Below the pieces are notes generated by a model that saw only the letters and a program-made list of their open reading frames with translations, searched no databases and was not told the origin of the DNA. 42,806 nt of DNA, from assembly GCA_964501965.1 (NCBI GenBank), contig CAZCVM010000003.1:1-42806 (forward strand). The letters are read 5' to 3'. The DNA is from an uncultured Leptospiraceae bacterium (GTDB lineage: Bacteria; Spirochaetota; DYNZ01). The number at the start of each line of letters is the position of its first letter. Positions within the stretch are counted from its first letter, which is position 1. A program made the translations under genes and the position numbers. Below, piece by piece: positions 1 to 28,803 of this stretch.

Positions 1-268
1 GTGCGTTTTTTAGCAAATCCGGATATTGAATATTGTGTATTTCATGATTTCCTGAAAAATCAAATTGCTTTTTCAGCTTGGCCAACAAGTGGATGGAATA
101 TCTCAATGATTTACTGGGTATGGTTCCCCTATGCGTACTACTGCCGCCTAAGCGAGGCATTTGTTCAATTAAGGCGACTTTTTTCTGAGCCTTTGCCGCT
201 TGCAGGGCAGCACCTTCTCCGCCCGGGCCGCTCCCAATTACAATAATGTCATACATTTCAGGTTTCAT
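1..268 (-). CDS. sthA: Soluble pyridine nucleotide transhydrogenase (flavoprotein disulfide reductase family), 5' part; runs off the window edge
   Basis: Not in ORF track. Manual translation from ATG at 268: MKPEMYDIIVIGSGPGGEGAALQAAKAQKKVALIEQMPRLGGSSTHRGTIPSKSLR, matching the SthA N-terminus (GSGPGGEGAA FAD loop; GGxxTHxGTIPSK). Starts 7 nt after the asnB stop. Confidence 0.85.
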   Translation of the reverse strand, partial: MKPEMYDIIVIGSGPGGEGAALQAAKAQKKVALIEQMPRLGGSSTHRGTIPSKSLRYSIHLLAKLKKQFDFSGNHEIHNIQYPDLLKNA

Positions 269-2270: not shown

Positions 2271-3377
2271 TTATTTGATTAGCATTCGGGCAGGTAAAAA
2301 ATCAAACCTATTGAGCATGGAAATCAATAATGCTTGTCGAACATACACAGCCCCATGCGCTTGTGTAAAATACAAATTGTGATCTGTGTTGTCCAATGAA
2401 GTACTCAATTCATCCAATCGGGCAAGCGGATGCATTACTACTGTATTGGGTTTGAGCTGACTATTTTTACTTAATTTAAATCTTTGATCCAAAGACTTGT
2501 AGCTGTCACCTAAATAAGTAATGGAATTCATATAAATAACATCCATATCTTCCAATACTTCCTGAATATCAGATGTGGCATAAAACGGAATACCAGAATC
2601 TTTCACCTTTGCCATTTCTTCATCTCCTAGAGGTTCCGCCATTTCTGAAATAATCGTTATTTTTTTTATTGCTGTTTTAAAGAATAAACTCATAAGTAAA
2701 AAACTTTTCACCGCCCGCATACTTCCCGGCGTGCCAATGATGCCAAGATGAATTTTTCTGTCTTCCGCAATATAGTCATTTTCTAGGTCTGGTCTCCATT
2801 TTAGCAAAGCATACCAATCAGCTAAAGCCTGAGTCGGATGCTCTCCGGTTCCATTGCCGGCATTGATCAGCGGTAAACGCAAATTTTGAAGCATTCGTTG
2901 AGGTGCGTTGGTTTCTGTATGACGCATAATAACTAAATCACCATAAGCATTGAACATTTCACCGATATCCTCTAAAGATTCTCCCTTGGCTACACCGGTT
3001 TGTTTACCATCCGGGATAGAAACAATCTTGCCATCCAAACGCAATACCGCACTTTCAAAAGATAACCTGGTACGTGTACTTGCTTCAAAAAAAGCAGTAA
3101 TAATAATTTTTCCGTCCAAAGGATGACTGGATGCCACTTCTGTCGCCTGCAGCAAAGCAGCAAATTTGCTTATTTCTAAAATCATGGTTTTATCCAATTG
3201 ATTAACGGCTATCAATGATTGCCCAGCTAGTTTGCGCAGCTGTGTAAAGTCAATGCGCTGTTCAGGATTTAACTTGTTGGGATCAGGATTCAATCCATTA
3301 GAATCCATTGGATTTGTCGTATTATCATGGGGACCTGAAATTTTATCCACAAAATCACTCCTTAAATTTTTGGCCAA
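2271..3377 (-). CDS. Aspartate carbamoyltransferase-like transcarbamylase with altered acceptor site
   Basis: FFEASTRTRLSFE, KGESLED, MRH, NAGNGTGEHPTQ and HPLAR are present; the canonical YMTRxQxER is replaced by YMNSITYLG. TTG start uncertain. Confidence 0.9.
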   Translation of the reverse strand: MAKNLRSDFVDKISGPHDNTTNPMDSNGLNPDPNKLNPEQRIDFTQLRKLAGQSLIAVNQLDKTMILEISKFAALLQATEVASSHPLDGKIIITAFFEASTRTRLSFESAVLRLDGKIVSIPDGKQTGVAKGESLEDIGEMFNAYGDLVIMRHTETNAPQRMLQNLRLPLINAGNGTGEHPTQALADWYALLKWRPDLENDYIAEDRKIHLGIIGTPGSMRAVKSFLLMSLFFKTAIKKITIISEMAEPLGDEEMAKVKDSGIPFYATSDIQEVLEDMDVIYMNSITYLGDSYKSLDQRFKLSKNSQLKPNTVVMHPLARLDELSTSLDNTDHNLYFTQAHGAVYVRQALLISMLNRFDFLPARMLIK

Positions 3378-6283: not shown

Positions 6284-6613
6284 TTACCAGGGAACATCTT
6301 CTTCTGATTTGTACAAATTGAAAAAGCTTTTTATTCCAGCCATATCCAATGCCTGCTCCAATTTCAAAGAGACATTGACAAAGGCCATCTCGCGATTGGC
6401 CAAAATCATTTTTTTTTGCAAAGAAACAAACGCGCCAATGCCGGAAGCCTCTATATGCTCCAATGATGCTGTATCTAACACAATATGTTTTTCTGATTCC
6501 GCGATTATTGCGGTAAGCTCTTTTTGAAAATCGTGAATATTGTTCAAATCAATATTTCCGGCAATGGATACCCATTGATATTTTTCTTTAATCTTACTCT
6601 CTATTTTTGTCAT
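6284..6613 (-). CDS. STAS-domain anti-sigma factor antagonist (SpoIIAA/RsbV-like), atypical
   Basis: IAGNIDL...IVLDTASLEHIEASGIGAF. Start moved to the in-frame ATG at 6613, which has an AGGG RBS. Confidence 0.85.
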   Translation of the reverse strand: MTKIESKIKEKYQWVSIAGNIDLNNIHDFQKELTAIIAESEKHIVLDTASLEHIEASGIGAFVSLQKKMILANREMAFVNVSLKLEQALDMAGIKSFFNLYKSEEDVPW

Positions 6614-6767
6614 ATTTTTTACCCTAAATAACATTAAAAAATAAATGGAAGATGTCAACATTTTTTTTTACTTGATACTCTAGCCTATCAATCAAAAAGA
6701 TAAACCATTCAGTCAAGAAAAAATAGACAAAAATAAAAAAAATGAGAAATAGAAAAATAGGACATTT

Positions 6768-12855: not shown

Positions 12856-12904
12856 GAAAAAATGAATGACAAATAGGGTAGATTTTTAAAAATTGAGGAA
12901 AAAA

Positions 12905-15900
12905 ATGGCAAACAAGGATACAATCATCCTGGATCAAAAAGACGATCAAGACGAAGAATTGCAAATTGCAGATTCTGATTTCGAAATAGACCCTCTTCCT
13001 GATTTGGACGAAGATGAGTTTATTGTCGAAGAAATGGAAGAGCTGTCTTCATCAGAGGAAAGTGACTCTGCAAACACGGATTCGTACAATCAAAATAACG
13101 ATCTGGACGATGACATTGGGTTTGAAGATGACCTTATTTTAAGTGATGAAGATTTGCTACCGTTCGATTTGATGGATCAAGCAGAATCCAGCCAAGAATC
13201 CTCCAAAACAGATCAAATGCTTACATTTACACCGCATGAAGACTATTTAATTAAAAATCTACCTCACAAAACTAAGTCTGAACCAGAGAGTAGAAAAGAG
13301 CAAGACGAAAAAACAATATTTGAAGATGATGTACTGGTCAGCCAGCCAGACCCAGGGACAGATAAAGATACAAATGAAGAAGAACCATTATTTTTAGAAA
13401 CCCAGGGAGAAGTTGTACCTGAGGAAAAACCAGCAGAAACAAAGGCTGATTCCCTATTTCCAGATTTACCGGAAAATATTCAGTATATTAATGAAGACGA
13501 ATTAATCATTACGGATTCAAACATTACAAACAATTCAACAGAAACGATAGATGCAGAACCAAAAGAAACAAGTCCAAGCAATTTAAGTATTGAAGATGAT
13601 AACAATATGACTATTACAACAGATAGAGAAACAATCGAATCTCAACCAACAATGGACAGCAACGACATATTGGATGATACACCGGATCCAATAGAAGATC
13701 CGGTACCAAATACAACAGAAAATGCTAAAGACAGTAATAAAGATAGTAATATGGAAGATAATCCAATGGAGACACCGGAAAAAAACCAAAACAATGAAAC
13801 CAAAACCGGTTTTTTTGCTAATGCGGACGACGATGACGAAACATTGGCATTATCAGATGAAGAATTGGGCGATATATTGCAAGATGTCACATTGGAAGAA
13901 GATATGAGTGATCAAAGCATACTGAATGATGACATGGAAGATGAAATATCGCAGCAAGAAATATCTCCCGAACCATTTGAGCAAACCGAGCAAACTGAAC
14001 AAATAGAATCAGGTGAAGATGTTTTGACAAATGTCAATGCTGACAACAATTCTGACAACAATGCGAATGATCAAGATATTGATCTCGATAGTATTGCATC
14101 AATGGAAGAAAGCGATAGCAATACCCCTAAGGGCGGTTTTTTTGATGGAGAAGATGATGATGACACCCTTGCCTTATCTGACGAAGAATTGGGCGATATT
14201 TTAGAGGATGTGGTACAAGAAGAAGAAGCCATCGGAGAGTTAAAACCCGCATTGGAACAAATCAATGAGACGAATGAAACTAATGAAGTAGATGCAAATG
14301 ATTTTGACAATGAGCCAGGTGCCCAGGAAGATAATACAACTCTGGATATGGATAGTTTAGACTTGGATTTGGCATCCGAAAACGAAGAAAAAATTGAAAA
14401 TGATGAAAATGATGAAAAAACGACTCTGGATATGGAGTCTTTAGACCTCGATATCAATGAAGACACAGATAACAATGAAATAGACGAAGATGAAACAGAT
14501 AACTTTGCAGAAAATGATGAAAATGATGAAGAAACAACTCTGGATATGGAGTCTTTAGATCTCGATATCGATGAACCAGATATGTCGGAGCCGGAGCTGG
14601 AAGCTGACAACAACGAAGATGATATTGAAGCTGACATTGAGAATGATATTGAGAACGACAATGAAAGCAATCAGGAAGACATCTTTGAAAGTACGATAAA
14701 TACTGGTGAAGAAAATATTGGAACAGATACTCTGGAAAGCAATGAAGACACAGATAACAATGAAATAGACGAAAGTGAAATAGATAACTTTGCAGAAAAT
14801 GATGAAAATGATGAAGAAACAACTCTGGATATGGAGTCTTTAGATCTCGATATCGATGAACCAGATATGTCGGAGCCGGAGCTGGAAGCTGACAACAACG
14901 AAGATGACATTGAGAATGATATTGAAAATGACAATGATAGCAATCAGGAAGACATCTTTGAAAGTACGATAAATACTGGTGAAGAAAATATTGGAACAGA
15001 TACTCTGGAAAGCAATGAAGACACAGATAACAATGAAATAGACGAAAATGAAATAGATAACTTTGCAGAAAATGATGATGATGATATTGCGATCGACATG
15101 GATGCTTTGGATCTGGATTTGGATGACCAGGATATTGAATCAGAAAAAACGGAAAGCGAAGAAAACGAAGAAGATACAACATTAGATATGGATTCCTTGG
15201 ATCTGGAAGATACTGATATATCTGATACACTGGATTCTTCTGATTCGATTGATTCGATTGATTCGATTGAAGAAAACAGTGTTGCCGAGGATAAGGTAAA
15301 TGGCATTACCGATGAGATGGATATAGAAATCGAAGATGATGTAGATATAGACGACATCAATGAACAAAAAGATGATGAACAGATTGTTGACGAAGAGGAT
15401 GAAGACGATATAGTAAAAAATGATCCAATAGATTTTTCTGAAAATGTAGATACAAGTAAAGAATTTGATGAAAATGTAGAAGATTATGGAGATGAATTTG
15501 AATTTGAAGAAGTCATTATTGATGGAGATCAAAAATTATCAAATGAATTTACTTCAGAAAATACCGCCTCTCCAACAGATCCGACTTTTGATATGGAAGA
15601 AAAGGATATCATGATAGATTCGGAGCCGGAACATGAACCAGAATTGGACAAATTTGACGAACAAGAAGGCCTGGAAGATTCTGACTATGATTCTGATTAT
15701 GATGATAAGGTGCTGTTTATCGAAGAAGATATCCAAAATGAAACAACAGTCGACAATGAACCGGGTTTGGACTTAGAAGATGATTTTGAAGAAAGTACTC
15801 TAAACGATGAGATCATAGACGATATTTTGGATGATGTTTCTGGCGACCAAATGCAAGATTTGGATGATGATGTTTCCACACAAATTCCCGAACCAGGCGA

Positions 15901-16237
15901 TGCTGTTACTCCAGCAGAATCAATACCAAATGTATCAAAAGACACACAGCCTAAATCCGCTCATGATATTATTGATCAAGAATTGGAAGCCATGGATGAT
16001 TCATTGAATGATTCACTGAACGATTCACAAAGGACAGCAACAGACCAAGCACCAATGACTGATCACGAAGCTTTGATTGGCAAAGAAAGTATGCCAACAA
16101 AAGAAGAACTGAGAAAAATGTTAAATTATTTGGACGGTCTATTCGAAAATCTACCAGACGATGCTGTCAAACAATTTGCCAAATCAGAGTATTTTGATTT
16201 GTATATGTCTATAATGAAAAAACTAGAAATGGAATAG
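12905..16237 (+). CDS. Very large acidic low-complexity protein with internal repeats and a C-terminal helical domain
   Basis: About 1110 aa, extremely Asp/Glu-rich; C-terminus KEELRKMLNYLDGLFENLPDDAVKQFAKSEYFDLY resembles spirochaete hypothetical proteins (recollection). Start placed at ATG 12905. Confidence 0.85.
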   Translation: MANKDTIILDQKDDQDEELQIADSDFEIDPLPDLDEDEFIVEEMEELSSSEESDSANTDSYNQNNDLDDDIGFEDDLILSDEDLLPFDLMDQAESSQESSKTDQMLTFTPHEDYLIKNLPHKTKSEPESRKEQDEKTIFEDDVLVSQPDPGTDKDTNEEEPLFLETQGEVVPEEKPAETKADSLFPDLPENIQYINEDELIITDSNITNNSTETIDAEPKETSPSNLSIEDDNNMTITTDRETIESQPTMDSNDILDDTPDPIEDPVPNTTENAKDSNKDSNMEDNPMETPEKNQNNETKTGFFANADDDDETLALSDEELGDILQDVTLEEDMSDQSILNDDMEDEISQQEISPEPFEQTEQTEQIESGEDVLTNVNADNNSDNNANDQDIDLDSIASMEESDSNTPKGGFFDGEDDDDTLALSDEELGDILEDVVQEEEAIGELKPALEQINETNETNEVDANDFDNEPGAQEDNTTLDMDSLDLDLASENEEKIENDENDEKTTLDMESLDLDINEDTDNNEIDEDETDNFAENDENDEETTLDMESLDLDIDEPDMSEPELEADNNEDDIEADIENDIENDNESNQEDIFESTINTGEENIGTDTLESNEDTDNNEIDESEIDNFAENDENDEETTLDMESLDLDIDEPDMSEPELEADNNEDDIENDIENDNDSNQEDIFESTINTGEENIGTDTLESNEDTDNNEIDENEIDNFAENDDDDIAIDMDALDLDLDDQDIESEKTESEENEEDTTLDMDSLDLEDTDISDTLDSSDSIDSIDSIEENSVAEDKVNGITDEMDIEIEDDVDIDDINEQKDDEQIVDEEDEDDIVKNDPIDFSENVDTSKEFDENVEDYGDEFEFEEVIIDGDQKLSNEFTSENTASPTDPTFDMEEKDIMIDSEPEHEPELDKFDEQEGLEDSDYDSDYDDKVLFIEEDIQNETTVDNEPGLDLEDDFEESTLNDEIIDDILDDVSGDQMQDLDDDVSTQIPEPGDAVTPAESIPNVSKDTQPKSAHDIIDQELEAMDDSLNDSLNDSQRTATDQAPMTDHEALIGKESMPTKEELRKMLNYLDGLFENLPDDAVKQFAKSEYFDLYMSIMKKLEME
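14456..15080 (+). repeat. Intragenic near-identical tandem repeat, ~2.2 copies (units of 285 and 273 nt)
   Basis: AATGAAGACACAGATAACAATGAAATAGACGAA starts at 14456, 14741 and 15014; units differ by a 12-nt indel and a few substitutions. Confidence 0.92.
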
Positions 16238-16239
16238 TT

Positions 16240-17259
16240 ATGGGCTTAAGAGAAAAAGCTCTGCAATTCAAAACGGAAAAAGCTATCACCAATACTCCGA
16301 TTGATACAATACCAGGGCCGGCTTCTAGCAAGCCAATAGATATTTTCAGGCCCTTGGACCAGGAGACGCCCACCAATAAACAAGATCCAGCCACGATCAT
16401 TTCGTCGACAAACGATACATCCATTCCTAAAACATCTACCTGGGAGGTGATCCATAAAGTTTTATCCTCCCAAAATGAAGATACTTTGCATGATTTAATA
16501 ATTATTGCGTTATGGCAAAGCTATAAACCCAACAAAATTGCGCTTTGGTCTGGTACTGAGCTTGCATTGAAAGCATACAAAGGAAAATTTGATCAGGACC
16601 TACCCCAAAGCATTGCTTTCACCCGGGAACAAAAACAAGAGATTCAAAGCATTGGACCGGTGTTTTTTTTAAGGGATTGTGGTTTTTTGACAGAGCTAAA
16701 TTCCAGTGGCTTGCAAACTTTTCTTATTTTGCAAAATAATGATAACTTGCGGTGTCTAATTGGCATGGATATGCAATTGCCGGAATCATTTAGTCAAATC
16801 AAATCCCAAATAGCTATTTTTGAACAAGCAGTGCAGAATGTAACCAAACAAGAAACGAATGAATTTTTTATTGAAAACAATGCTGCTATGATTCAATTTA
16901 TTAATAATAGTTTGCAATCTTTTCCCAATATGACAGTTATTCATTTAGCAATAAAAAATCATCCGCGAATTTTTAATTTATTTGGCTTAGAAAATACAAA
17001 AAGTATCGAAAAAGAATACAAAAATACAATTATGGCCCATGTGCCGGAAAAGACAAAAGTTTACCGCATATCCAGCCGTGATTATCTTATTTTGTGCCGC
17101 ACACTGGCCATCCCAGAATGCGAAAGTTTCATGTCCATGATTAAATACCGAATCGAACAAATTGAGCTATCCCATGATTTTCGACCTGTACCAATCTATC
17201 GTTTTTTTTCAGCAAATAAAGATTTTACTTGCGCTGAAAAACTGCTTACATTTTTATAA
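16240..17259 (+). CDS. Hypothetical signalling protein, possible GAF-like plus degenerate GGDEF-like domain
   Basis: C-terminal LAIKNHPRIFNLFG...YRISSRDYLIL aligns with GGDEF core elements but lacks GGDEF itself; starts 2 nt after the acidic gene. Confidence 0.55.
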   Translation: MGLREKALQFKTEKAITNTPIDTIPGPASSKPIDIFRPLDQETPTNKQDPATIISSTNDTSIPKTSTWEVIHKVLSSQNEDTLHDLIIIALWQSYKPNKIALWSGTELALKAYKGKFDQDLPQSIAFTREQKQEIQSIGPVFFLRDCGFLTELNSSGLQTFLILQNNDNLRCLIGMDMQLPESFSQIKSQIAIFEQAVQNVTKQETNEFFIENNAAMIQFINNSLQSFPNMTVIHLAIKNHPRIFNLFGLENTKSIEKEYKNTIMAHVPEKTKVYRISSRDYLILCRTLAIPECESFMSMIKYRIEQIELSHDFRPVPIYRFFSANKDFTCAEKLLTFL

Positions 17260-17264
17260 ATATT

Positions 17265-19751
17265 ATGGCTGAAAAAACAATGAAAAAAATATCAAATATG
17301 GAACTAAATGATATACGTAAAATCCGAATCGGCATAGTTACTAAATTTGTCTTATTTGTTACATTGATTCTTGTCGTAGCTTTTAGTATGACATTTTATT
17401 TTGTCTTGTCCCAGCAAAAACATCAAATCACCGAAAATCTCAAAGAAAAATCATTGGCCATTCTGCAAACTCTTTCTGTGCCAGTCAAAGACCTATTGCA
17501 AAATTTTGCTTCATTCAAAGCTCATGAAGAACAAATCGTCAAAAGCAAAAAATATAGTCCTGGCCTTAGCCAAAAATTTAATGACGCAAAAACAAAGTAC
17601 CGGGAAAGCGAGAATCAGCTAAGAAAGTTTCATACCCAGCTTATGGAAGATATGAACACCAAAGATTTTTATATTAAAAGTACTTTTGGCAAAGTTTTTA
17701 CTTTTGACAAGTATGGCAAAAAAGACGCGGAAGACATTCCAGATACAAATCAAGAAAAAGATTTTCGATTGAAATTCAATCGTGCAATCAATATCCATTT
17801 ACGTCGCCTCAATCCAGGTATCTATTATATGCCATTTTTCTCTTCCAAAAAAGTAAAAGAATATGATAGAATGAGGACTTCTTTGCCATTGTTTGCTACC
17901 ATTCAAACAAAGAATTTTTATCAGGATATTTATGAACTGTTTGTAAAAAAACACAAACCCACTCAACAAGCCATTGTACGGCGTTTATTAAAACAAAAAA
18001 AATGGCAGAGACATTTTGATTTGGATCCAAATAATAAAAATTTTGTTCAAAGGACAGAACAAATTGTAAATAAGGTGCAATTTTCCGAAATTCAAAATAA
18101 ATTGAAAGATAGATACCGGATTGATCTTGTTTATCGCGCTCTGAAAAATAAAGTAAATCAATACATTACCAAAGAAATCAACAAAGATGACAAATGGGAA
18201 GAAAAAATAAAAGATATTGATTATGAATTTTATTACTTTTACAAAGATGCTAAATACGGGCAGGATCTATCAGACAGAAAAAAAGAATGGCAATGGTTCT
18301 TAAAAGAACTTGTTGATATCACTGCATCCAAATTGATAGACAACAGGGAATGGTACAAAGAATATCGCATTAAATATCAATTGTACAGAAAATCAAAACA
18401 AGGCAAAGAAACTAAACCCCAGTCTCCGGCAGAAATAAAAAAGCAATGGCTGCAAGCTTTATTGGCGCACACAAAATATCAAAACAAAATATCCTGGAAG
18501 TATACTAAGGAATTAATTGTTTCACAAATCAATTCTCAAAAAATACCTAAAAATACTACTTATTATACGCAAAAAGATTCCTGGAATTTTTTTGAATTAA
18601 TTCGTGAATATATTTCCCAAAGAAAATATGGGTTTATCAGTACCAAATTGAATTTAGTCAAATTTGCTACGGCTGTAAAAGCAAAAGAACAACTCGGCGT
18701 GATGGTCTTAGTCATAGAGGCAGATGATTACAAAAAAAGGATCGCAGCCACATCCAACTCATTGATAGATATTGCTATTAGCATTATTTTGCGTATTTTA
18801 TTTTTGAGTATTTTATTGGCTGGTTTATTCACAAGAGGCATCAAAATACTCGGCCAGGGTGCTAAAGTGATTGGTGATGGAAATTTTGATTATAAAATTC
18901 AAATAAAATCCTCGGATGAAATTGGTCAGCTAGCAGATACGATCAATCAAATGAGTGCAAATTTGAAAATAGCGCAACTAGAAAAAGAAAAGCAGTTGAT
19001 GTTGGAATCAGAATTGCGCCAGGCGTCTGAAATTCAGCAAACTTTATTGCCGCAGGCTGTTGATATTTCAGGTTTGGAGCATGACGAATACTACAAAGCG
19101 GAAAGCCTTTCTGGTGGTGACTATTATGATTATTTTATGATAAACGAAGACAAAATTGGCTGGGTTATTGGAGACGTGTCTGGCCATGGCGTGGGAGCGG
19201 CATTGGTAATGGCAATGACAAGATCCCTGGTAAGAGAATATACTAAAAAATGGTTGGACCCTCAAAAAGCATTGATTGATGTAAATGAAGTGCTGTGCTC
19301 TGACACCCAGCCCCAGTATTTTGTAACCTTATTTTTGGCTATTTTTGATAAAAAAACCAAAAAAATGCAATGGTCTTCAGCCGGACACAATCCCGTGTAT
19401 TTGCTAGCCCCTGGTCAAAAAGCTGAAGAATTGGCGGCAGGAGGTATGGCATTGGGCTCCTTTTCTGGCGAACGTTTTGCAAAAAAATCCTTACACAATG
19501 AAAGAACATTTCACCCGAATGAGATATTTTTACAATATTCAGATGGTATCACAGAAGCCATGAACCGAAAAGAAGAAGAATATGGTGATGACCGACTTCA
19601 AGCTCTGGTCAACAATTTGACAAAAGCAAAAAATTTGACTCCCCAAAAAATTGTGCAAGCTATTATCCGTGACGTAAATGCATTTACTCAGGGATACCGT
19701 CAGAATGATGATATTACGGTGACTTGTATCCGATACAATGCGACAAGTTAA
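17265..19751 (+). CDS. Membrane-bound PP2C/SpoIIE (RsbU-like) phosphatase with large extracytoplasmic domain and HAMP
   Basis: Two TM segments, HAMP (DEIGQLADTINQM), GGDYYD, GDVSGHG, SAGH, YSDGITEA, DDIT. Confidence 0.93.
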   Translation: MAEKTMKKISNMELNDIRKIRIGIVTKFVLFVTLILVVAFSMTFYFVLSQQKHQITENLKEKSLAILQTLSVPVKDLLQNFASFKAHEEQIVKSKKYSPGLSQKFNDAKTKYRESENQLRKFHTQLMEDMNTKDFYIKSTFGKVFTFDKYGKKDAEDIPDTNQEKDFRLKFNRAINIHLRRLNPGIYYMPFFSSKKVKEYDRMRTSLPLFATIQTKNFYQDIYELFVKKHKPTQQAIVRRLLKQKKWQRHFDLDPNNKNFVQRTEQIVNKVQFSEIQNKLKDRYRIDLVYRALKNKVNQYITKEINKDDKWEEKIKDIDYEFYYFYKDAKYGQDLSDRKKEWQWFLKELVDITASKLIDNREWYKEYRIKYQLYRKSKQGKETKPQSPAEIKKQWLQALLAHTKYQNKISWKYTKELIVSQINSQKIPKNTTYYTQKDSWNFFELIREYISQRKYGFISTKLNLVKFATAVKAKEQLGVMVLVIEADDYKKRIAATSNSLIDIAISIILRILFLSILLAGLFTRGIKILGQGAKVIGDGNFDYKIQIKSSDEIGQLADTINQMSANLKIAQLEKEKQLMLESELRQASEIQQTLLPQAVDISGLEHDEYYKAESLSGGDYYDYFMINEDKIGWVIGDVSGHGVGAALVMAMTRSLVREYTKKWLDPQKALIDVNEVLCSDTQPQYFVTLFLAIFDKKTKKMQWSSAGHNPVYLLAPGQKAEELAAGGMALGSFSGERFAKKSLHNERTFHPNEIFLQYSDGITEAMNRKEEEYGDDRLQALVNNLTKAKNLTPQKIVQAIIRDVNAFTQGYRQNDDITVTCIRYNATS

Positions 19752-26769: not shown

Positions 26770-27963
26770 ATGGCAAATGAGAATATGGAAAATTCAGAAC
26801 CAGGTCTAGAACCAGCAGAAAAGAATCGTCATACTTCATACAAAAAAACACAAGATATGGAAACGATTATTCGGGTCATTAATGAGAAGTTTTTGAAAAA
26901 GAAATTGACTATACAATTGGCTACTTTGAGCCCTAAATACGCTCATATTATTTCTTTTGATGATACCGGTATGATTATTCAATTTGACAATTTTGTTCCG
27001 CCTGTGGGGGGGCTTTTGCTTTCCGGTTTTATCAATGATTTTTATACAGAGCTTGGGATTGAGGTAATAAACAATAAAGAGGGCAATCTTTTTTTGTGTA
27101 AGCCCAAATTGCTTCGTATTGCGTCGCAAAAACGTATGGATGAAAGATTTGTGATTGATAATGCTGATCTTATTTATGTCAACAAAATACGTATTGCCAA
27201 AGCGGATTTGGATTTCTCTGGTAAAAATCTTCCAGTATCATACAAAATTCTCTTGCAGCAGTTTCAGCAGGAAAATCATGATTTGGGAGATAAAGTGCAA
27301 ATTGCAAGTTTTGGCGATGTCAAAGAAGATATTTATAATAAGGTATTTAAGACCGGCAAAACATTTTATATAAGCAATATTGATGATAATGAAAATTATC
27401 AGCAAAATCTTGATAATGATGAATTTCTTTCATTGGAGGAAGCTGGAAGCAATTGGGAAAAAATGAGCAAAGAATTAAGCAATCACAATCGTAAAGGTTG
27501 GCTTATTTCGCCCATTCTTACAGATAACGCAGACGGAGCCTGGATACCTTTAGGTTTTGTAGAAATTGTGAACAATACGCCGATTACAACCGATACGCTG
27601 ATGACCATAAAAGCTTTGTCTTTTAAAATTTTGGATAAAATAAAATCCATGAACTTGATGGAAGTCAAAGAAAGACAAAAAGTAATTGATGTTTCCCGTA
27701 CAGGAATACGTTTGGAAGTAGAAAATCAAAAGTTGATTGATGCTATTTTACGGCGCAGAGAAATGATATTTGATATTATTATGAAAATGCAAGCACCTAT
27801 TACCATACAGGGATGGATACGGGCTACAAAAATATTGGACAATGGCAAATTGCATGTTGGCTTAAAAATTCAGGGAGAAAACAACAGACAAAATCAAATG
27901 AAAAGATATATTCATTTTATTAATGAATTATCCCAAAAAGCCAGACAAACCGGCAAAGATTGA
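26770..27963 (+). CDS. DUF1577-like protein with split PilZ-type motifs
   Basis: RMDERF (RxxxR) and DVSRTG (DxSxxG) flank a GAF-like insert; architecture recalled from Leptospira DUF1577 proteins. Confidence 0.7.
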   Translation: MANENMENSEPGLEPAEKNRHTSYKKTQDMETIIRVINEKFLKKKLTIQLATLSPKYAHIISFDDTGMIIQFDNFVPPVGGLLLSGFINDFYTELGIEVINNKEGNLFLCKPKLLRIASQKRMDERFVIDNADLIYVNKIRIAKADLDFSGKNLPVSYKILLQQFQQENHDLGDKVQIASFGDVKEDIYNKVFKTGKTFYISNIDDNENYQQNLDNDEFLSLEEAGSNWEKMSKELSNHNRKGWLISPILTDNADGAWIPLGFVEIVNNTPITTDTLMTIKALSFKILDKIKSMNLMEVKERQKVIDVSRTGIRLEVENQKLIDAILRRREMIFDIIMKMQAPITIQGWIRATKILDNGKLHVGLKIQGENNRQNQMKRYIHFINELSQKARQTGKD

Positions 27964-28011: not shown

Positions 28012-28803
28012 ATGGAAGTAAATGTTTTTGATATAGAACCGCATAGAATTGTGAGCATCGCAGGGGATGTGGATTTGTACAATGTCTCAGAATTGAAAGA
28101 TGCTTTGTATCAGGCGATAGAAGAAGATGTGCAAAGCCTAGTTGTGGATATGAAAAATATTTTTTATATGGACTCTTCCGGCATTGGCTCGCTTTTGGGT
28201 GCACACAAAAGAATGAAAAGAAAAGGTGGCCGTTTTAGTTTAGTCAATATGCAAAAGGAGACTCGTGAAGTTTTTCGATTGGCTTCTTTACACAATTTTT
28301 TTAACATTTACCAGGACATAGATGACAATTATTTAGCTATTCCAGCCTATGGGGTAGAGGCGGAACCACTGCCGGTGGTCAAAAAAAATGAAAATATTGA
28401 AACGGATCAGCAAATGCAGGTTGCAGAAGAGCGAGTCATTTTTAAAGGCTGGGTGGATGACAATACTTTTCGCGTGCCAGTAGACGGCTTTCCCAATTCC
28501 ATGACAACAGATATCTGGGCTAGAAAAATTGAAGCCAAACAAGACGCATTGGAACGGGCACACAATATCACTCTGGAATACTTTGTGCGCTATTGTAAAA
28601 GCAGAACATGGGTAGTTTTTAACAATTATCGCCGTGATGTCTATGCCAAATATTCTTCTATTGTTTCAAAGGGGATAGCGAAAATCACGAAATTTGACTC
28701 TATGCAAAATTGTACTATTATTTTTGAAGTGCAAAGTGCCGGTTTGAGACTCGAAGTTTTGGAAGTACCTAAAAGCACGAAGTTGACAAGCAAAACCATC
28801 TAG
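28012..28803 (+). CDS. STAS anti-sigma antagonist domain fused to an uncharacterised C-terminal domain
   Basis: GDVDLY...YMDSSGIG with the canonical phospho-Ser, followed by ~150 extra residues. Confidence 0.85.
   Translation: MEVNVFDIEPHRIVSIAGDVDLYNVSELKDALYQAIEEDVQSLVVDMKNIFYMDSSGIGSLLGAHKRMKRKGGRFSLVNMQKETREVFRLASLHNFFNIYQDIDDNYLAIPAYGVEAEPLPVVKKNENIETDQQMQVAEERVIFKGWVDDNTFRVPVDGFPNSMTTDIWARKIEAKQDALERAHNITLEYFVRYCKSRTWVVFNNYRRDVYAKYSSIVSKGIAKITKFDSMQNCTIIFEVQSAGLRLEVLEVPKSTKLTSKTI

Follow-up and report, generated by a model that had tools for sequence, protein, structure and literature searches.

What does a carbamoyltransferase do when it has kept the carbamoyl-phosphate site of aspartate carbamoyltransferase (ATCase) and lost the residues that grip aspartate? 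The question is raised by a minus-strand gene (Table 1) in positions 1 to 42,806 of contig CAZCVM010000003.1 from an uncultured Leptospiraceae bacterium (assembly GCA_964501965.1); this whole 42,806-nucleotide stretch is referred to here as the window. An initial annotation, made by eye, had described the product as an ATCase paralogue with a new specificity, probably for an alpha-amino acid bearing a different side chain. Following up that proposal, we find that the enzyme belongs to a large clade separate from true ATCases and is encoded in a conserved gene cassette. We suggest, with a probability of about one in two, that it carbamoylates a neutral L-amino acid and that the cassette serves the synthesis, re-uptake and breakdown of an N-carbamoyl amino-acid amide.

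Pfam matched the translation to OTCace_N (E 3e-34) and OTCace (E 9e-13); the carbamoyltransferase assignment is therefore no chance match, and chance was ruled out as an account of the open reading frame (ORF). ATCase models head its NCBIfam ranking, yet all score under their cut-offs (TIGR00670, 178.5 against 236.95 bits; NF002032, 175.5 against 263), whereas ornithine carbamoyltransferase (OTCase) models reach at most 92 bits against cut-offs of at least 280. Identities as OTCase, putrescine carbamoyltransferase (PTCase), YgeW or AOTCase/SOTCase were considered and rejected on their low scores, which lie far under those of the ATCase models; the OTCase motifs HCLP and DxxxSMG, which the initial annotation had reported missing, are indeed not found in the translation. 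An AlphaFold model (pLDDT 87.3, with low confidence only at residues 1-23 and in the loop 287-293) has as its top fold match the E. coli ATCase catalytic trimer in complex with N-phosphonacetyl-L-aspartate (PALA; 1ekx_B, TM-score 0.89 on target). The source genome, an assembly of 478 contigs that is 74% complete, encodes a canonical PyrB with the motifs RVQFER and HPGP, adjoining a dihydroorotase-like gene, as well as an OTCase with HCLP and DVWISMG. The gene in the window is therefore a third carbamoyltransferase paralogue, as its first description implied. Residues are numbered here from the TTG codon that opens the 368-residue ORF; the likelier start is the GTG at 3350, which has AAGGAG 7 nt upstream and would give 359 residues, equal in length to the identical called protein P0002.

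Residue equivalences were taken from a MAFFT alignment with E. coli PyrB (from NC_000913) and from HMMER comparison with PDB chains, and the two agree. Both place the STRT motif at E. coli Ser52-Thr55, the Lys84 equivalent at K131 (AKGES), Arg105-His106 at R152-H153 (MRH), HPTQ at residues 180-183, and Arg167, the ligand of the alpha-carboxylate, at R221 (SMRA), so that every ligand initially read as retained is in place. In ATCase, Arg229 and Gln231 of the RxQxER 240s loop bind the aspartate beta-carboxylate (PMC4581275). The initial annotation had noted YMNSITYLG in place of YMTRVQKER at this loop, and proper alignment puts Ser and Thr at the two positions; judged from the alignment, the beta-carboxylate clamp is lost. 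The loop is followed by Asp291, invariant in the family, and by the nearly invariant Ser292 and Tyr293. Of the three carbamoyl-phosphate motifs of the transcarbamylase superfamily, SxRT, HPxQ and HxLP (PMC4581275), the first two are present as STRT and HPTQ, and the third reads HPLA, its final proline changed to alanine as first described. Gly166 is replaced by Met and Thr228 by Asn. The proposed change of Ser80 to Gly also stands in the MAFFT register, where Ser80 aligns with Gly128 and Thr79 with Thr127, subject to a one-residue ambiguity, the E. coli loop being one residue longer: an ungapped count back from Lys84 would place Thr at Ser80, and conservation among true ATCases, which have Ser three residues before the Lys, favours Gly. 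Overall, the enzyme resembles PyrB (EC 2.1.3.2) in fold, in its carbamoyl-phosphate ligands and in its equivalents of Arg167 and Lys84, at about 31% identity; besides the substitutions listed, it differs in having some 45 additional N-terminal residues, which the model shows as partly ordered, and in clade and operon.

These features are general among 353 relatives fetched from three homologue searches, which are roughly 60-89% identical and come from Bacteroidota, Calditrichota, Verrucomicrobiota, Planctomycetota (among them Roseiconus, Rosistilla and Novipirellula of the Pirellulaceae) and further groups. All 353 have STRT and HP[TS]Q, while T-G before KGE is found in 351, xMRx in 352 and HP[LFM]A in 350. 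Positions 229-231 read SIA in 290 relatives, SIT in 24, SIV in eight, SLA in two, and SIC and AIA in one each; the loop pattern was unmatched in the other 27, and none of the 326 with a matched loop has the Arg...Gln clamp. A 49-sequence alignment shows Asn284 to be invariant, like Asp291. The closest named match is a Leptospiraceae metagenome-assembled genome (MAG; 72% identity), and an exhaustive search of 1.84 billion representatives returned one close cluster and a handful of sequences at 42-49%, below which come ordinary ATCases at about 35%. Phylogeny, which the initial annotation had named as a check on its reading, agrees: in a FastTree phylogeny built on 77 rows, after 58 of the 90 ATCase rows had been dropped for speed, the HPLA proteins separate from every true ATCase with 100% Shimodaira-Hasegawa-like local support; the tree is rooted at its midpoint only. 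It could still be argued that the enzyme is an aspartate carbamoyltransferase that binds the side chain through other residues, given that its top family and structure matches are ATCases. We give this almost no credence: there is no Arg or Gln at or near positions 229-231 in the relatives with a matched loop, the same genome carries a canonical PyrB beside a dihydroorotase-like gene, and the enzyme scores under the equivalog cut-offs and falls in a separate clade.

Thirteen proteins of about 355 residues branch on the HPLA side of the tree with degraded motifs (e.g. SSRT, NPTH, no KGE): P0256, P0260, P0262, P0266, P0273, P0277, P0278, P0280, P0290, P0300, P0304, P0309 and P0310. From their sequences, this sister group may consist of true pseudo-enzymes; when five cassette genomes were searched with P0256, only the cassette enzyme turned up and no separate sister-clade copy. 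Their existence, together with the literature name 'pseudo-ATCase', could be taken to mean that the protein in the window is itself non-catalytic and has a structural or regulatory role. This is very improbable, as STRT and HP[TS]Q are present in all relatives and KGE and MR in nearly all, over 45-89% identity and many phyla, and such conservation of carbamoyl-phosphate ligands is the signature of selection on catalysis. Thus, the transcarbamylase of new specificity first proposed is partly supported: the lost clamp, the retained carbamoyl-phosphate and alpha-carboxylate sites, the separate clade, the sub-cut-off scores, the genome's own PyrB and the neighbouring genes make a change of specificity well founded at the level of sequence, and the acceptor and the specificity itself are what we infer from them below.

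The carbamoyltransferase gene is the fourth of five consecutive minus-strand genes, listed in order in Table 1. The first encodes a membrane protein with no match in Pfam or NCBIfam, whose central domain appears FN3-like from a conserved motif in the alignment. The symporter that follows belongs to the SSS family and scores under every NCBIfam equivalog cut-off (PutP and PanF, about 94 bits). Across 18 aligned copies of the micro-protein, Leu27, Asp34 and the C-terminal Trp do not vary; this protein and the membrane protein may be accessory subunits of the symporter. The amidotransferase gene lies 39 nt downstream of the carbamoyltransferase gene, and its product has the Pfam domains GATase_7 and Asn_synthase, exceeds the cut-off of TIGR01536 (433 against 267 bits) and stays below those for AsnB (NF006949), the AsnO of N-acetylglutaminylglutamine amide (NAGGN) synthesis (TIGR03104, 286 against 570) and the PEP-CTERM amidotransferase. 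Its closest PDB relative is the hydroxyamidotransferase 7ylz; a literature search for the residues with which asparagine synthetase binds aspartate came up empty. Beyond it, the N-terminus of an FAD/NAD(P)-binding oxidoreductase (2-268, minus strand) starts 7 nt after the amidotransferase gene and is cut off by the contig end; as nothing equivalent follows the cassette at the other loci, it is probably not a cassette member.

Table 1. Genes and active-site motifs of the carbamoyltransferase cassette (positions in the window)
Feature	Position	Strand	Remarks
FN3-like membrane protein (predicted fold), 194 aa	5073..5657	-	First cassette gene; hydrophobic stretch at each end, ~95-residue domain between
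Sodium:solute symporter, 472 aa	3572..4990	-	Pfam SSF
Single-helix micro-protein, 41 aa	3428..3553	-	Between symporter and carbamoyltransferase; ends ...KKKIW
ATCase-like carbamoyltransferase, HPLA ('pseudo-ATCase') clade	2271..3377	-	ORF from TTG 3377, 368 aa
STRT carbamoyl-phosphate motif	3069..3080	-	Residues 100-103; E. coli Ser52-Thr55
240s loop YMNSITYLG replacing YMTRVQKER	2508..2534	-	Residues 282-290; Arg229 to Ser, Gln231 to Thr
HPLA replacing HPLP	2421..2432	-	Residues 316-319
Glutamine-dependent AsnB-type amidotransferase, 651 aa	276..2231	-	N-terminal Cys2, SGGIDS PP-loop

The same gene order is fixed over 30 family loci from more than 10 phyla, which were found, together with seven ordinary ATCase loci, in a scan of one genome per species. 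The family loci come from Verrucomicrobiota, Planctomycetota (including Scalindua), Bacteroidota, Ignavibacteriaceae and Acidobacteriota, and further from Polyangiaceae, Krumholzibacteriota, Methylomirabilota, Hyphomicrobiales and Lysobacterales. With the window proteins as tblastn queries, the amidotransferase was found directly downstream of the enzyme in 27 of the 30 loci (the other three end at a contig edge), the symporter upstream in 29 (49-68% identity over the aligned part) and a membrane-protein homologue at the same place in 26; none of the three was found at the seven ordinary ATCase loci. Between symporter and enzyme, 26 of 28 loci have a micro-ORF of 39-54 residues that ends in [LIV]W and contains an invariant Asp, L012 and L014 having been left out of this count. 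In the Krumholzibacteriota locus L033 (8001-9037) the carbamoyltransferase appears split into two ORFs of 195 and 226 residues, and in L026 (9663-10340) the amidotransferase is broken in two; frameshifts or errors of assembly may be the cause.

Within the window's own phylum the cassette was present in none of 200 other sampled genomes, and the window enzyme is about 70% identical to the Bacteroidota and Calditrichota copies. Because of this sparse distribution and high identity, horizontal spread is the simplest account of the cassette's occurrence. Two further searches were negative within their scope: the best 120 matches of a third homologue search, with a gammaproteobacterial query, included no Ectothiorhodospira, Nitrosococcus or Kangiella, and no HPLA-type protein was found at E <= 1e-60 in 401 sampled genomes of Olsenella's phylum.

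Flanking ORFs, clustered after a crude ORF call with Pfam and NCBIfam applied to representatives only, point to a second set of linked genes. An M20 amidase of the hydantoinase/carbamoylase family adjoins the cassette in 11 loci, scoring 511 bits against a cut-off of 399 with NF006771 and 389 against 520 with ErtE, the N-carbamyl-L-glutamate amidohydrolase. An isochorismatase-family hydrolase, weakly similar to biuret amidohydrolase and RutB, is found in nine loci, and a MarR regulator recurs in six. In the source genome the M20 and isochorismatase-type genes lie side by side on another contig, C49, and are 56% and 60% identical to the Pelagicoccus copies. At this locus (L044, 3027-6742) the pair is directly preceded by a Na+:alanine symporter-family gene, which may provide a second uptake route feeding the breakdown enzymes. 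Close M20 orthologues (E <= 1e-120, 47-57% identity) occur in seven of 10 cassette genomes, and in all six of these other than the source genome they are on the same contig as the carbamoyltransferase. Among 120 other genomes of the Pelagicoccus class, none has the carbamoyltransferase and none a close M20, eight having M20 paralogues at 33-39% identity. As to the supply of carbamoyl phosphate, the 74%-complete source genome yielded no carbamate kinase (arcC; best 36 bits against a cut-off of 358), and a fragment of the carbamoyl-phosphate synthetase (CPSase) large subunit is present, a combination that, at this completeness, fits an anabolic direction.

From the residues, clade, synteny and co-occurrence described above, we infer what the enzyme does, on which acceptor, in what sequence the cassette enzymes act, and what they make and for what purpose. 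The enzyme would be a catalytically competent carbamoyltransferase that has given up aspartate. Carbamoyl phosphate would be bound as in ATCase, and the acceptor would be held through its alpha-carboxylate by Arg221 and Lys131; retention of these equivalents of Arg167 and Lys84 argues for an acceptor whose alpha-carboxylate is still free at the time of carbamoylation. The side-chain pocket would be rebuilt with the small neutral residues Asn284, Ser285 and Thr/Ala287, followed by Asp291-Ser292-Tyr293, and the replacement of the Arg/Gln clamp by small polar residues points to an acceptor with a neutral or hydrogen-bonding side chain. Most likely, then, the acceptor would be a neutral L-amino acid, carbamoylated on its alpha-amino group, with glutamine as our first guess and asparagine as the second. 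The AsnB-type amidotransferase would next amidate the carboxylate of the carbamoylated product, yielding an N-carbamoyl amino-acid amide that the symporter would recapture or import, and that the M20 N-carbamoyl-amino-acid amidohydrolase and the isochorismatase-type amidase would degrade. The pairing, in many genomes, of amide- and ureide-making enzymes with an amidase and an N-carbamoyl hydrolase that would reverse both reactions suggests a compound with one carbamoyl group and one new amide. As far as is known, L-carbamoylases need a free carboxylate, and so the amidase should act first in breakdown; the proposed degradation would thus mirror a synthesis in which carbamoylation precedes amidation.

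A compound of this kind exists. N-carbamoyl-glutamine amide is produced by Ectothiorhodospira marismortui, and the pathway for the osmolyte NAGGN, which we take to be encoded by asnO-ngg, offers an example of an AsnB-type enzyme amidating the alpha-carboxylate of glutamine. By analogy, the cassette amidotransferase would likewise cap the carboxylate of an N-blocked glutamine derivative to give an uncharged solute. The two systems differ in that the N-block here would be installed by carbamoyl transfer, not by the Ngg acetyltransferase/ligase, in the score of the amidotransferase, well below the TIGR03104 cut-off, and in that no ngg-like gene or domain was found among the cassette genes scanned. 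This orphan osmolyte is our best candidate for the product of the cassette, an identification that is possible but on balance doubtful. Our literature search found no paper that assigns genes to it, and the available text of two papers treating it as an existing solute names none (PMC1224877; PMC7824335), nor does the search entry of a third paper that mentions it (PMC3857566).

Several observations weigh against the synthesis and turnover of an N-carbamoyl amino-acid amide. In the genome, at 74% completeness, no clear AsnB-type gene was found besides that of the window, which could thus also serve as the housekeeping asparagine synthetase. A close M20 was not found in three of the 10 cassette genomes (G002, G005 and G010), and the best curated label for the M20 protein is 'allantoate amidohydrolase', a subfamily whose cut-off it exceeds. 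Many cassette carriers belong to soil or sediment lineages and are not halophiles. Rhodopirellula baltica carries a pseudo-ATCase, RB13301 (PMC4016543), that probably belongs to the HPLA family, which its Pirellulaceae relatives carry; in the available part of a nuclear magnetic resonance (NMR) study of this organism under salt, heat and nitrogen stress, the only solutes are sucrose, glutamate, trehalose and mannosylglucosylglycerate, with no carbamoyl amide (PMC3694870). Literature searches around RB13301 turned up only the 2013 paper that describes it (PMC4016543). Finally, sequence does not discriminate between glutamine, asparagine and another neutral acceptor.

The M20 label, the non-saline carriers and the R. 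baltica solutes would suit a different anabolic outcome, in which the AsnB-type enzyme makes asparagine and the carbamoyltransferase converts it to N-carbamoyl-L-asparagine, an isostere of allantoate, or acts on some other neutral or basic amino acid, the product being a nitrogen store, a signal or a precursor and not an osmolyte. Asp291 of the substrate loop, being invariant, fits here as well, as it could bind an amide or an amine. We consider such an outcome rather unlikely: an anionic product suits a cassette for re-import and degradation less well than a neutral solute does, and N-carbamoyl-asparagine is not known as a natural product.

As far as the available text of Barba, Dutoit, Legrain and Labedan (2013; BMC Syst Biol 7:99; PMC4016543) goes, the clade, its HPLA and [AS]I[AS] motifs and a closely matching gene context have been published under the name 'pseudo-ATCases', placed at the root of ATCase family II, and the substrate has not. 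The window enzyme resembles the 'pseudo-ATCase 1' row of their Table 1 in STRT, HPTQ, HPLA and [AS]I[AS] in place of RxQ, and in being a paralogue beside a genuine PyrB; where that table gives AIA, AIS or SIA at positions 230-232, the window copy has S-I-T, the Thr at the third position being an unlisted variant. Their text describes a marine 'Subgroup 3' (R. baltica, N. oceani, Synechococcus WH8102 and Kangiella), its function left open, with a context of a Na+ symporter, the pseudo-ATCase, an 'asparaginase' and a HyuC-like N-carbamoyl-amino-acid amidohydrolase (PMC4016543). At the window locus the symporter and an asparagine-synthase-type amidotransferase, where theirs is called an 'asparaginase', flank the enzyme, and the HyuC-like M20 gene is on another contig, although adjacent in 11 loci. 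The HPLA cassette also spreads far beyond the marine species of 'Subgroup 3', and the micro-protein, the FN3-like membrane protein and the isochorismatase-type amidase receive no mention in the available text (PMC4016543). Table and text do not pair subgroups alike, for Table 1 assigns HPLA to subgroup 1 and HSLP/VxP to subgroup 3, whereas the text gives the symporter context to subgroup 3.

Opposed to biosynthesis stands a catabolic role like that of ureidoglycine carbamoyltransferase, in which an imported ureido compound and phosphate would be converted to carbamoyl phosphate and an amine. The only 'pseudo-ATCase' that has been assayed, Rxyl_2847 of Rubrobacter xylanophilus, phosphorolyses allantoate, and Table 1 assigns HPLA and [AS]I[AS] to its subgroup (PMC4016543). 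Compared by description, it shares with the window enzyme its place in the ATCase branch and the lack of the RxQ clamp, and its substrate is an alpha-amino acid that carries a neutral ureido group as side chain (PMC4016543); a review by Shi et al. (2015), in the part available, likewise puts the ureidoglycine enzyme in the ATCase branch and gives RxQxxER as the ATCase signature. A symporter leading the enzyme in nearly all loci and ureide hydrolases linked to the cassette are also what such a role would predict. However, Rxyl_2847 works in the phosphorolytic direction amid carbamate kinase, allantoinase and purine-catabolic genes (PMC4016543), none of which is in the cassette: at the loci with genes identified, neither carbamate kinase nor allantoinase was found, and arcC likewise went undetected in the incomplete source genome. 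The ATP-consuming glutamine amidotransferase would moreover be left without a role, and the disagreement between table and text over which motifs go with which subgroup also counts against it. We therefore regard catabolism as unlikely and continue to favour synthesis of an N-carbamoyl amide.

A metagenome scan with an HSLP-type representative, P0351, returned 22 distant relatives at 27-45% identity, mostly with HPLP, in mixed contexts that included aminotransferases, a dihydroorotase (DHOase)/CPSase operon and one OTCase plus amino-acid-kinase cluster; a cluster look-up named a single organism, Actinophytocola. On one metagenome contig (L070, 1741-5928), OTCase-like, amino-acid-kinase-family, second ATCase-branch carbamoyltransferase and class-III aminotransferase genes stand in a row, a different and possibly catabolic carbamoyltransferase cluster.

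Elsewhere in the window, two consecutive plus-strand ORFs of 1114 and 339 residues (12893-17259) have no Pfam match and are followed by a HAMP-SpoIIE phosphatase gene (17265-19751). STAS-domain genes are located at 6284-6661 and 28012-28803; together with the HAMP-SpoIIE gene they suggest partner-switching signalling. A DUF1577 protein is encoded at 26770-27963 on the plus strand, a Pfam family that we take to be specific to Leptospira; with a Leptospiraceae MAG as the best named match of the enzyme, this suggests a Leptospirales MAG as the source of the window.

The clade is large, and thousands of its members stand in databases as 'aspartate carbamoyltransferase', so that routine annotation miscalls it. 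Few transcarbamylase substrates have been proven, namely aspartate, ornithine with its acyl forms, putrescine, diaminopropionate/diaminobutyrate and ureidoglycine. With glutamine or asparagine as the acceptor, the enzyme would represent a new activity, an orphan compatible solute would gain its first genes, and the transfer of the cassette among phyla would be explained. An L-glutamine N-alpha-carbamoyltransferase, in particular, would be a new transcarbamylase specificity and the first step of the pathway. A nitrogen-rich ureido amide, or a close relative of it, would then be a common but overlooked solute in more than 10 phyla, including soil lineages, anammox bacteria and the spirochaete-like MAG from which the window derives.

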